NCBI GenBank assembly: GCA_015059155.1
Contig: SVAX01000003.1
Coordinates: forward strand, 28,473-92,472
From: Bacillota bacterium
Lineage (GTDB): Bacteria > Bacillota_I > Bacilli_A > RF39 > UBA660
Length of the DNA stretch: 64,000 bases
Reading direction: 5' to 3'
In this document: piece by piece, positions 7,672-30,124 of the stretch
Numbering within the stretch: position 1 is the stretch's first letter
How the letters are laid out: the number at the start of each line of letters is the position of its first letter
Program-made: the position numbers and the translations under genes
The notes under the pieces: generated by a model
The model's database searches: none
What the model saw: the letters and a program-made list of their open reading frames with translations, nothing else
Told to the model about the DNA's origin: nothing

Positions 7672-7774
7672 AGATAATTATAATTAAATATTATTTTTTC
7701 AAACGGCAAAGTTGCGAAATCAATATATTTGTGATAAAATGTATTTAGTGAAGGAAACTTCATATAATATAAAA

Positions 7775-7858
7775 GGAACACTTAATATTGCTTTGTTGAG
7801 TGTTACCCAATAAATTGTGTAGCACCTAATTCAATGCTGAGTTAGGTGCCTTTTATTT
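7775..7858 (+). ncRNA. candidate antisense RNA (antitoxin-like) of small-ORF module 1
   Basis: TATAAT at 7763-7768. Hairpin AACACTTAA/TTGAGTGTT, then hairpin GCACCTAA(7822-7829)/TTAGGTGC(7842-7849) plus a T-run. Ends are approximate. Confidence 0.55.
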
Positions 7859-7942
7859 TAGTATTACAAAAAGTAACGCTATAAGCAAAAGGATGATAAT
7901 GATTAAAGAACAGATAAAAAAATCTTTCTTACTCACAAGCAT
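7853..7942 (-). CDS. small hydrophobic peptide (type I toxin-like), M(LV)SKKDFFICSLIIIILLLIALLFVILK
   Basis: TTGATA(8028-8023)-17 nt-TATAAT(8005-8000) promoter; GGAGG at 7949-7945. The ATG at 7942 is only 2 nt from the SD, so the in-frame GTG at 7936 (8-nt spacing) is the likelier start. One TM-length hydrophobic stretch. Confidence 0.55.
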   Translation of the reverse strand: MLVSKKDFFICSLIIIILLLIALLFVILK

Positions 7943-8051
7943 CACCTCCTATCTATTAAGATAGAGGTAGCACCCAACTATTAAATGTTCCTACATATAA
8001 TTATATCAAACATACATTCATATATCAATAGTATATGAATTTTTTTAAAAC

Positions 8052-21464: not shown

Positions 21465-21582
21465 AATATCACTTCCTATTGATAATATATTATAATTATT
21501 TCATTTTGTCAACATGTTTGACAAATATAGCAAAGATGTGCTAAAATGTATTTACTGAAAGAAAACTTCATATAATAAAAAA

Positions 21583-21668
21583 GGAACACTTAACATTGCA
21601 GTGTTGAGTGTTGCCGATTTAATTGGTTCCACCTAAATCATTGCTGAGTTAGGTGGATTTCTTTTATA
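21583..21668 (+). ncRNA. candidate antisense RNA of small-ORF module 2
   Basis: TATAAT at 21571-21576. Hairpin AACACTTAAC.../...GTTGAGTGTT, then CCACCTAA(21629-21636)/TTAGGTGG(21649-21656) plus a T-run. Confidence 0.5.
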
Positions 21669-21734
21669 TTAATACTATAAATAGGAAGAATAGTAAAAGG
21701 AAGATAATTATATTAAAAAATCCTTCTTGTTCAT
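21664..21734 (-). pseudogene. frameshifted type I toxin-like small ORF (module 2)
   Basis: GGAGG-7 nt-ATG(21734). MNKKDF, then a T6 run (plus-strand A6 at 21715-21720) and a stop after 8 codons. With T7, as in copy 1, it would read MNKKDFFNIIIFLLLFFLFIVLI. Promoter TTGAAT-18 nt-TGcTATAAT is intact. Confidence 0.5.
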
Positions 21735-21883
21735 CTTATCGCCTCCTACATCAAGAAATTTTGCTCCACCCAACTATTAAATGTTCCTACTATATTATAG
21801 CAAAGCCCTACATCACAATTCAATGTTATTTATTGATTATTTGTATATTTCATAAAACATACACTTTTGTGTATGTTTCTTTT

Positions 21884-24678: not shown

Positions 24679-24832
24679 AAAATTGGTAAAATTTAATTGC
24701 CAGTTTTTTATTTCTAATTGCCATCTATTTATGTGTATATCAACAAGAAAATTATAACATTACAAATTATTGATTTTAAATAAAAAGTGTGTTATTATAA
24801 ATATGTCAAGGAAACTTGCATATAATAAAAAA

Positions 24833-24916
24833 GGATACATTTGATTGTGCGAATCAAATGCATTCCCTTATTGGATTGCATCTGAAATCAACGGTTGTTG
24901 AAATCAGATGTTTTTA
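24833..24916 (+). ncRNA. candidate antisense RNA of small-ORF module 3
   Basis: TATAAT at 24821-24826. Hairpin CATTTGATT/AATCAAATG (24838-24860), then an imperfect hairpin at 24879-24910 plus T5. Confidence 0.55.
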
Positions 24917-24994
24917 TTATTTAAATAGTAAGGTGATTACTACAAAAAATAATAGTAGAATTATAATAAATTGAGATAATTCTCTTTTTGTCAT
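24917..24994 (-). CDS. small hydrophobic peptide (type I toxin-like), MTKRELSQFIIILLLFFVVITLLFK
   Basis: TTGATA(25090-25085)-17 nt-TATAAT(25067-25062). The 5' UTR hairpin CCUUUCUU-GAAA-AAGAAAGG covers the start of the SD AAGGUGG. ATG at 24994; the stop abuts the sRNA terminator. Confidence 0.6.
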   Translation of the reverse strand: MTKRELSQFIIILLLFFVVITLLFK

Positions 24995-25118
24995 AATTAA
25001 CCACCACCTTTCTTTTTCAAGAAAGGGAAAGCATCTGATATTTTCAAATGTATCCATTAGTATTATATCAAACATATATTCTTATATCAATAGTATATGT
25101 TTGATTTTTTTATATTTT

Positions 25119-29697: not shown

Positions 29698-29773
29698 TGG
29701 CGCCTCTTGTAGGACTCGAACCTACGACCTAACGGTTAACAGCCGTGCGCTCTACCGACTGAGCTAAAGAGGC
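29698..29773 (-). tRNA. tRNA-Asn (GTT), CCA encoded
   Basis: Cloverleaf folded by eye: GCCTCTT acceptor, anticodon loop CTGTTAA, TTCGAGT T-loop, discriminator G. Confidence 0.9.
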
Positions 29774-29781
29774 ATTTAAAA

Positions 29782-29857
29782 TGGCGCCTGATGTAGGACT
29801 CGAACCTACGACCTAACGGTTAACAGCCGTGCGCTCTACCGACTGAGCTAATCAGGC
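29782..29857 (-). tRNA. tRNA-Asn (GTT), CCA encoded
   Basis: Nearly identical to the first copy; acceptor GCCTGAT/ATCAGGC. Confidence 0.9.
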
Positions 29858-29859
29858 AA

Positions 29860-30124
29860 TTTAAATAGCAATCCGTCTCTATTTCTTGGGACGAATTATT
29901 TCCGCGGTGCCACCCAAATTGTCATAAAAAAATGACCACTTTACCGATTCTATCAAATCGAGTAACTTTTAACGGGTTACATCCGATTAACTTTACTTTG
30001 TTCAAGTTAATAGTTCATGAGTGTTATTCATAATATACTTAATTGTTAGCTCACACCATACCTAACTCGCTTTTATTAGTTTATATCATTACTTCTCTCA
30101 ATCAACACTTTTCAAAAGGCTTAT
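29860..30124 (-). promoter_or_regulatory. T-box leader with Asn (AAC) specifier
   Basis: TTGACA(30159-30154)-17 nt-TATAAT(30136-30131). Stem I shows AGAGA/AGTA elements and a distal-loop TGGTGTGA. Specifier GAAU-AAC-A has its codon at 30025-30023. T-box sequence AATTTGGGTGGCACCGCGG lies at 29920-29902. The UGGC bulge matches discriminator G plus CCA of the downstream tRNA-Asn. TTCGTC...GACGGA is the alternative helix. Confidence 0.75.

Follow-up and report, generated by a model that had tools for sequence, protein, structure and literature searches.

A multi-copy type I toxin-antitoxin-like module with a predicted panhandle toxin mRNA in uncultured gut Bacilli

Type I toxin-antitoxin (TA) loci are recognized by a small hydrophobic, membrane-type peptide encoded behind a Shine-Dalgarno (SD) sequence and by a gene for an antisense RNA complementary to the toxin mRNA. 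In hok/sok of plasmid R1 the extreme 5' end of the full-length mRNA pairs with the 3' end and so closes the molecule (tac/fbi), the 5' element can alternatively pair just downstream to give a metastable local hairpin, and the SD is masked by a hairpin (PMC9841398); the fold-back controls SD exposure, and Sok targets the 5' leader in the mok region. In aapA/IsoA of Helicobacter pylori, whose loci are chromosomal and multi-copy, the primary transcript is stable and kept inert by a long-distance 5'-3' interaction that supplies the anti-SD, and local SD hairpins act during transcription (PMC6733600); IsoA overlaps the 5' untranslated region (UTR) and the open reading frame (ORF) (PMC8594479). The par/Fst-RNA II group (Enterococcus faecalis pAD1, SprA1, Lpt) has convergent promoters, an antitoxin terminator directly past the toxin stop codon with complementary terminator hairpins, repeats (DRa/DRb) that form a second region of complementarity, a 5' stem-loop that masks the SD, and a helix within the mRNA that keeps its extreme 5' end hidden (PMC7472228, PMC5608710); its terminator is bidirectional, and its repeats cover the initiation region. 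The antisense RNAs of the Bacillus subtilis pairs txpA/RatA and bsrG/SR4 overlap their toxin mRNAs at the 3' end (PMC8594479), extending over the ORF and being only partly covered by the mRNA, and neither a 5'-3' fold-back nor an antitoxin-like leader has been described for these systems. Here we analyze a locus, termed copy 3, in a 64,000-nucleotide stretch (the window) of contig SVAX01000003.1 from the Bacillota assembly GCA_015059155.1, in which a 25-residue hydrophobic peptide and a putative small RNA (sRNA) are encoded convergently. It mixes a predicted closure like that of hok and aapA, the promoters, SD stem-loop and hidden 5' end of par/Fst and the 3'-side antisense RNA of txpA/RatA, and it lacks the defining peptide signatures, bidirectional terminator, initiation-region repeats and long-distance anti-SD of these systems. 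None of the 24 families in T1TAdb has this organization, going by the descriptions in the paper (PMC8594479).

We estimate a probability of roughly 0.6 that copy 3 is a type I TA-like module whose toxin mRNA forms a panhandle, and that it belongs to a family matched by no Rfam, Pfam or NCBIfam model. Both hallmarks of a type I system are present, namely a 25-residue peptide behind the SD GGUGGUGG and, on the other strand, a predicted antisense RNA gene with a convergent promoter and an intrinsic terminator; from the sequence we infer the toxin function of the peptide and the antitoxin role of the sRNA. All analysis was done in silico. The original prediction of a type I TA-like module with a convergent sRNA was upheld, and on rechecking it proved correct in its coordinates for a 12-mer inverted repeat, an 8-mer direct repeat, the hydrophobic ORF and an SD-masking hairpin, as well as in naming two sister copies, which lie at ~7712-8028 and 21518-21825 and have the 12-mers AGGAACACTTAA and AGGAACATTTAA. 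There are thus three copies of the module within the window. The 12-mer of copy 3, GGATACATTTGA, occurs just twice in the window, at 24833-24844 on the plus strand and at 25044-25055 on the minus strand. Comparison of the first sRNA hairpin (h1; 24833-24866) with 25023-25055 indicates that both repeats, the inverted and the direct, belong to a single imperfect inverted copy of h1, ~30 nt in length.

Relatives were collected by scanning one genome per species for a conserved box upstream of the sRNA hairpin (AAACTT-N0-1-CATATAATAWAAAAGG), which returned 118 stretches (identified below by L numbers). Among these we recovered 103 distinct modules that have an SD and a hydrophobic ORF of 22-37 residues on the opposite strand; most of the homologous ORFs have a strong SD, and an N-terminus of the form M-x-K-[KR]-[DE] is common to them. 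A covariance model and nhmmer found ~140 copies in the fetched loci, including 33 without the exact search pattern. The sRNAs were divided into 16 clusters at 30% divergence by average linkage (single linkage at 70% merged all of them), and the inverted 12-14-mer, present in 97 of the 103 modules, differs in sequence among these clusters. On the contigs with an identical AsnS (L001-L006) copy 3 is identical too, and hence they offer no variation to analyze. Five pattern matches without a module (L011, L041, L068, L093 and L107) lie inside coding sequence and look like chance occurrences.

Across the modules, the initial 12-14 nt of the toxin mRNA track the 5' arm of h1. The duplex that joins the 5' end to the 3' end has a mean energy of -16.9 kcal/mol for cognate ends against -9.1 kcal/mol for partners taken from other clusters, and the cognate end is strictly the best partner for 10 of the 16 cluster representatives. 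Moreover, minimum-energy folds of the full-length mRNAs contain the 5'-3' closure in 97 of 97 modules, with ~12 expected end-to-end pairs in the ensemble; the copy 3 mRNA itself folds at -75 kcal/mol (z-score -10.6). When RNAalifold was run on 71 modules with 48 nt from the 5' end joined to 52 nt from the 3' end, two helices were predicted: helix A (~12 bp), between the first and the last 12 nt of the mRNA, and helix B (13-16 bp), between nucleotides ~17-33 and the antisense of the h1 3' arm. In this alignment 91.4% of the cells are paired, compared with 75.3% after shuffling (a level of pairing as high as that observed was reached in 0 of 500 shuffles, a significance inflated by kinship among the sequences) and 36-43% in slid registers. 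For covariation, the observed score of 0.615 compares with 0.307 in shuffled alignments and at most 0.152 in slid registers, and 22 of the 24 fold-back pairs have changes on both sides. The leader is more similar to its cognate h1 (identity 0.71) than to non-cognate ones (0.61), as exemplified by L017 with the h1 GGATATACTTAACTTTTGCATTAGTTAAGTACACTCCC and the leader GGATATACTTATCTAGTGTTAGGTACACTCCC. These patterns suggest that the opening ~33 nt of the mRNA derive from h1 as an inverted copy that has diverged and has a shorter loop, so that they could pair with the last ~45 nt in a two-helix closure, the panhandle. The earlier proposal that the two mRNA ends can pair is thereby extended to a closure longer than 12 bp; its appeal to covariation across three paralogs as a sign of selection holds by virtue of the 103 modules from other genomes, the three paralogs by themselves giving no real support.

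At mismatched positions of the 12-mer the sRNA has C and the mRNA T in 43 cases, and the reverse in none, which is what pairing of the mRNA 5' end with a G-containing complement, G·U pairs being tolerated, would produce. The same bias bears on whether the inverted repeat might act as DNA, either as a start-site or operator element shared by the two promoters or as the terminal repeats of a mobile element. Such a role would suit a repeat that flanks a multi-copy unit of ~220 bp and lies on each side a few bases downstream of a TATAAT box; however, it would account neither for the one-way C→T changes nor for complementarity that runs on into a second covarying helix, and the conserved promoters lie outside the repeat, with the sRNA probably starting upstream of its own repeat copy. 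We therefore consider action at the DNA level very improbable.

The panhandle presupposes that the toxin mRNA extends to h1, and the positions of the U-tracts point to this. Past the first hairpin after the stop codon the next 9 nt contain on average 6.7 T in the sRNA direction and 2.2 T in the toxin direction, and in the latter none of the 97 modules has at least 6 T. Because the U-tract is found only on that side, this hairpin appears to be a terminator for the sRNA alone and not a bidirectional one. The hairpin that comes next in the toxin direction is antisense to h1, has GG:CC as its closing pairs and is directly followed by a U-tract, which is also seen in 27 of 30 copies whose detection did not depend on it; in the 9 nt upstream of the toxin 5' end the mean is only 3.3 A. 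Since a U-tract follows only this second hairpin, the toxin mRNA most likely ends opposite 24828-24833, in agreement with the earlier claim that its 3' end is antisense to the sRNA hairpin. The promoter on the minus strand is near-consensus and probably strong, and the predicted mRNA of ~228 nt would have a structured leader and a 3' UTR of ~90 nt (Table 1). The sRNA would lie wholly inside this 3' UTR and thus be perfectly antisense to it. A competing layout follows par: the toxin mRNA would stop at the shared hairpin after the stop codon, without any fold-back, and the two elements of the leader would pair in trans with the 3' arm of h1 and the 5' arm of the sRNA terminator. The convergent promoters and complementary terminator hairpins are as in par/Fst (PMC7472228), and the leader 12-mer can indeed pair with the sRNA h1 3' arm (mean -8.8 kcal/mol). 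However, its pairing with the antisense of the sRNA 5' arm is at -15.8 kcal/mol and stronger in 96 of the 97 modules, the two trans helices would not be collinear on a geometric reading of the segment order, and the T-run that such an mRNA end calls for is found in none of the 97, which makes this layout unlikely. In some clusters (L012, L018, L020, L032, L086 and L114) the toxin ORF extends into the sRNA terminator hairpin, with C-termini such as …KIAPSLMR or …KIVPTV, and the antisense RNA there overlaps the coding region.

Table 1. Positions of the predicted elements of copy 3 and of its two sister copies in the window
Feature	Position	Strand	Remarks
Module copy 3	24770-25090		toxin on minus, sRNA on plus strand, convergent
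Likely sRNA promoter P1, TTGATT-17-TGtTATTAT	24770-24798	+	TGnTAnnnT conserved among copies
Short hairpin h0, CAAG-GAAA-CUUG	24807-24818	+	likely sRNA 5' end
TATAAT plus AAAAAA	24821-24832	+/-	plus: possible second promoter; minus: predicted U-tract of toxin terminator (UUUUUUAUUAUA)
sRNA hairpin h1, GGAUACAUUUGAUU...AAUCAAAUGCAUUCC	24833-24866	+	predicted fold, compensatory changes
Antisense of h1	24833-24866	-	predicted toxin mRNA terminator hairpin and 3' partner of both fold-back helices
sRNA linker	24867-24877	+	predicted mostly single-stranded
sRNA terminator h2, GCAUCUGA-AA-UCAAC-GGUU-GUUGA-AA-UCAGAUGU	24878-24917	+	with U-tract
Putative toxin ORF, MTKRELSQFIIILLLFFVVITLLFK, plus stop codon	24917-24994	-	25 aa; preceded by GGTGGTGG
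SD region GGUGGUGG	25001-25008	-	within AGAAAGGUGGUG
SD-masking hairpin, CCUUUCUU-GAAA-AAGAAAGG	25007-25026	-	predicted
Fold-back helix B, 5' strand, UCAGAUGCU.UUCCCUU	25023-25039	-	includes the 8-mer of the original prediction
Fold-back helix B, 3' strand, AAGGGAA.UGCAUUUGA	24854-24870	-	in toxin 3' UTR
Fold-back helix A, 5' strand, GGAUACAUUUGA	25044-25055	-	toxin mRNA nt 1-12
Fold-back helix A, 3' strand, UCAAAUGUAUCC	24833-24844	-	final 12 nt ahead of U-tract
Toxin promoter, TTGATA-17-TGaTATAAT	25062-25090	-	11/12 consensus matches, with TG; predicted start G at 25055
Sister copy 1	7712-8028		P1 7712-7740; sRNA terminator 7822-7849; toxin promoter 8000-8028 (-)
Sister copy 1, toxin ORF MSKKDFFICSLIIIILLLIALLFVILK	7853-7936	-	GTG start
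Sister copy 2	21518-21825		sRNA and fold-back elements intact; toxin ORF frameshifted

The direct repeat had been read as a contact in trans between the sRNA and the toxin 5' UTR. As a cognate-specific feature it is real: it stands at a constant 12-20 nt from the toxin 5' end, changes in sequence from cluster to cluster, and gives a duplex of -14.3 kcal/mol between the targeted cognate segments against -8.8 kcal/mol for non-cognate ones, even though energies for the whole sRNA against the whole UTR, in which A/U-rich stretches swamp the repeat, retain almost no cognate signal. If pairing of the sRNA linker and terminator 5' arm (GCAUCUGA) with the 5' UTR (UCAGAUGC) were the key contact, it would act like the par repeats DRa/DRb, possibly on the nascent mRNA before the 3' UTR exists. 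The complementarity often reaches into the sRNA linker, the pairing beats that with the arm of the first 3' UTR hairpin of the mRNA in 64 of 97 modules, and in the clusters L089 and L097, where h1 and the terminator hairpin h2 are unlike, a separate UTR segment matches the terminator arm. Nevertheless, the UCAGAUGC segment pairs better in cis: its mean energy is -21.5 kcal/mol with its own 3' UTR (the antisense of the h1 3' arm), -14.2 kcal/mol with the sRNA linker and terminator 5' arm and -7.1 kcal/mol with the leader's own 5' arm in a local hairpin, the cis partner being favored over the trans one in 92 of 97 modules. At discriminating positions 352 fit the cis pairing only, 206 the trans pairing only, 189 both and 76 neither. 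The 8-mer GCATCTGA (24878-24885 and 25031-25038, plus strand) is by itself non-significant, with 3 matches in the window against 0.75 expected and 3 of 100 shuffles reaching 3, so that it is weak evidence taken alone. The contact lies upstream of the SD hairpin and covers neither the SD nor the start codon, and the terminator arm would no longer be free once the sRNA is in duplex with the 3' UTR. The ambiguity between cis and trans arises because h1 and h2 are alike in most clusters. A key role for the trans contact is thus a tentative proposal, less likely than the cis alternative; probably the segment mostly serves as the 5' strand of helix B, with the trans contact at best a secondary, alternative pairing.

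Masking of the SD by a local hairpin, also part of the original prediction, holds across the family: the mean pairing probability of the SD core is 0.71, in 69 of 97 modules at least 3 of the 5 core nucleotides are paired with upstream bases, and the masking stems vary in sequence between clusters.

The sRNA probably starts ~30 nt upstream of 24833, where the original prediction had placed its 5' end, and would be longer by the same amount, because a conserved promoter followed by a GAAA-loop hairpin is found there. The promoter (P1) consists of a TTGACA-like element, a 17-nt spacer and TGnTAnnnT, with its box 30-55 nt ahead of the "GG"; of 131 copies, 123 have TGnTAnnnT here, and 109 of these also have a -35 element. 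A stem of 4-6 bp adjoins the box in 124 of the 131 copies, with a GAAA loop in 100, and pair 4 of this stem (h0) is G-C in 77, C-G in 40 and T-A in 5. Promoter and GAAA-loop hairpin have equivalents in all three copies of the window (24770-24832, 7712-7773 and 21518-21581), and an A/U-rich single-stranded stretch, CAUAUAAUAAAAAA, separates the hairpin from h1. The TATAAT box at 24821, previously taken as the sRNA -10 element, may still be a second promoter, P1 being the likely one for the sRNA; near-miss variants of this box retain TAnnnT. For 84 sequences RNAalifold predicts two sRNA hairpins, h1 and the terminator h2, and all 15 consensus pairs, those of h1 included, have changes on both sides; copy 3 adopts the same two-hairpin fold (z-score -4.0). 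The linker between them, predicted to be mostly unpaired, might act as the seed that binds its likewise exposed counterpart in the mRNA 3' UTR. In most clusters the h1 3' arm is also complementary to the h2 5' arm (e.g. 24852-24893 in copy 3), with duplex energies of -10.1 kcal/mol for cognate and -6.3 kcal/mol for non-cognate arms. In the resulting alternative fold segments 2 and 3 form a central hairpin in place of the hairpins 1:2 and 3:4, which, if it formed, would be attenuator-like and block terminator formation.

Taken with the panhandle, these elements could operate as follows. During transcription the local hairpin would hold the SD closed; after termination the leader would capture the terminator hairpin's 3' arm, and the resulting panhandle would hide both RNA ends and provide a stable, inert pool of mRNA. 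It would cover the h1 half of the antitoxin target site, leaving the antisense of h2 (hairpin H1 of the mRNA 3' UTR) and the linker exposed to nucleate docking of the sRNA. Being perfectly matched, the sRNA could then zip up and displace the wobble-rich leader, and the long duplex might be degraded by RNase III, by analogy with Gram-positive systems that have 3'-overlapping antisense RNAs. Duplex-triggered decay is the expected outcome of overlaps of the txpA/RatA and bsrG/SR4 type. Toxin synthesis would call for depletion of the sRNA together with either breathing of the SD hairpin or processing of the mRNA. For the steps after folding this scheme leans on hok/sok (PMC9841398), aapA/IsoA (PMC6733600), par/Fst (PMC7472228) and the 3'-overlapping Gram-positive families (PMC8594479).

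Several points weigh against the panhandle module as set out here. The leader and the 3' end can each form a local hairpin of their own, the terminator hairpin has to arise at least for a time, and covariation by itself does not separate these states from the panhandle; for the combination of 5' hairpin and terminator hairpin, 48.5% of the cells are paired in alignment A3, a figure affected by an unreliable column register, with bulges differing between clusters. The predicted probability that the SD is unpaired is 0.186 whether or not the 3' UTR is blocked (p = 0.36), and since SD accessibility is the same in both states, a function of the panhandle is not evident from thermodynamics. The likeness to the hok fbi element noted earlier hence extends to the 5'-3' closure and, by prediction, not to control of the SD. 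The roles of RNase III and other RNases are assumed by analogy. The homolog set was ascertained with a pattern that includes the TATAAT box and A-tract, so that these features are biased, and the 30 pattern-free copies come from the same loci as the pattern-found ones. The toxin start site was placed with the help of the 12-mer match, to which the slid-register control is only a partial answer. Finally, the hosts are all uncultured, and the module is known from sequence alone.

Two further pairings were considered. An SR4-like switch, in which sRNA binding would free the leader and tighten the SD hairpin, was not supported, given the equal SD values of 0.186 in both states (p = 0.36). Pairing of the leader with the arm of the first 3' UTR hairpin is cognate-specific but part of the minimum-energy fold in only 4 of 97 modules. 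A more speculative, and in our view doubtful, extension of the panhandle is that the leader is a built-in mimic of the antitoxin, an evolutionary copy of h1 that competes with the sRNA for the same 3' UTR site and provides an mRNA-sensing feedback. One motif and its complement would then make up the leader, the four sRNA arms and the four 3' UTR arms, with swappable partners, and toxin mRNA bound to the nascent sRNA could switch termination to read-through across the toxin gene.

The fate of the ORF in degenerate copies is relevant to the nature of the peptide. In copy 2 the toxin ORF (21690-21745, minus strand) has a 13-nt deletion relative to the intact relatives L121 and L092 and reads MNKKDFLI*, and the sRNA, leader and 3' UTR elements are unbroken; by this comparison copy 2 is a decayed toxin with a retained antitoxin. 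Loss of the toxin with retention of the antitoxin is the usual decay pattern of TA loci. Other copies likewise have no ORF and keep the sRNA. In other genomes the modules form tandem arrays, with three to five units ~350-400 bp apart in L094 (2477-3510), L080 (4375-5485), L075 (4750-5675), L118 (5322-6059), L061 (5728-6512) and L052 (1211-2770) and a maximum of four or five, some members being degenerate with a truncated terminator or no toxin 5' repeat. One may ask whether the peptide is instead a small membrane protein of the ordinary kind, with an antisense RNA to adjust its expression, given that its toxicity is deduced from sequence and that it matches no known toxin family. Against this stand the lock on translation at several levels, the multi-copy and tandem arrangement, the copies that lost the ORF and kept the sRNA, and a charged N-terminus followed by a single hydrophobic helix, like that of known type I toxins (PMC8309996); we regard a non-toxic peptide as improbable.

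Searches against the known families agree with a separate position for the module. At gathering score no Rfam family was found for any of the three window copies, the best sub-threshold match being GibS (24.9 bits versus 115), and for the toxin peptides neither Pfam nor NCBIfam gave a family. Against the HokA model the peptide reaches E = 0.12 and 12 bits, with a cut-off of 89, which does not place it in Hok/Gef. The likeness to hok/sok is one of structure only, in the predicted closure, the alternative local pairing of the 5' element and the SD-masking hairpin; unlike hok/sok, the antisense RNA covers the 3' UTR, predicted SD accessibility is independent of the fold-back, there is no leader ORF, and the hosts are of Gram-positive type. 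With aapA the locus would share an inert transcript closed over a long distance, co-transcriptional SD hairpins and multiple chromosomal copies, whereas its anti-SD is local and upstream, and its sRNA, unlike IsoA, lies in the 3' UTR. As in par/Fst, the promoters are convergent, the sRNA terminator directly follows the toxin stop codon, the repeat offers a second complementary stretch, the SD is masked by a stem-loop at the 5' side, and the extreme 5' end is predicted to be hidden in an intramolecular helix, its partner here being the mRNA 3' terminus. It differs from par/Fst in lacking a bidirectional terminator (0 of 97 modules with at least 6 T), in having its repeat upstream of the SD hairpin, off the SD and start codon, and in an sRNA wholly within the mRNA 3' UTR. 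Fst/Ldr peptides are marked by a P/D/S/TxxxG motif within their membrane helix, a Trp that is conserved and a C-terminal tail with charges (PMC7472228); no element of this signature, whether PxxxG, conserved Trp or charged tail, occurs in MTKRELSQFIIILLLFFVVITLLFK or its relatives. From txpA/RatA and bsrG/SR4, which share the overlap at the mRNA 3' end, it is set apart by an antisense RNA fully covered by the mRNA, by the fold-back and antitoxin-like leader, and by the lack of support, on modelling, for remote tightening of the SD as by SR4.

Nearly all hosts are uncultured gut genomes labelled "Bacilli", "Tenericutes", "Mycoplasma sp." or Erysipelotrichaceae, the samples having come from goat, sheep, rabbit, mouse, reindeer and Hadza humans, with Coprobacillus sp. 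CAG:605 and Candidatus Faecisoma merdavium (Mycoplasmatota incertae sedis) as named examples. Genuine modules are also present on contigs from Bacteroidales bins, in records labelled Muribaculaceae or Bacteroidaceae (L015, L022, L038 and L050), which are probably binning errors. Nothing similar was found in the phage and plasmid collections searched. If our reading is correct, these modules make up a large type I TA family, with more than 130 copies in dozens of metagenome-assembled genomes of poorly studied, small-genome gut Bacilli/Mycoplasmatota of ruminants, rabbits, mice and humans. It would mean that a hok-type 5'-3' fold-back, known from Gram-negative systems, also exists in a Gram-positive-type lineage, combined there with a 3'-side antisense RNA. 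The 16 diverged clusters would be a rich natural set of compensatory mutations for partner exchange among toxin mRNA, leader and antitoxin, and the covariance model and search pattern would allow annotation of such loci, whose ORFs of 22-37 residues are missed by gene callers.

Two observations concern the surroundings of copy 3. A block at and upstream of the toxin promoter (…TATCAAACATAYATTCWTATATCAATAGTATATG…) is near-identical in copies 3 (25068-25100) and 1 (8005-8040) and recurs in 11 other loci, including L022, L025, L034, L037, L056, L075, L084, L103 and L121, next to RNAs of different clusters. On the plus strand it yields a hairpin of A and T only with a T-run behind it, and it possibly serves as a site for a regulator, as an UP element or to halt sRNA read-through. 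Further along, a T-box leader (137.9 bits; 29698-30114, minus strand) is directly followed by two tRNA-Asn(GTT) genes and then by gatC-gatA-gatB and asnS, which reach 25119; this looks like a single T-box-controlled unit in which tRNA-Asn genes are joined to both routes to Asn-tRNA.

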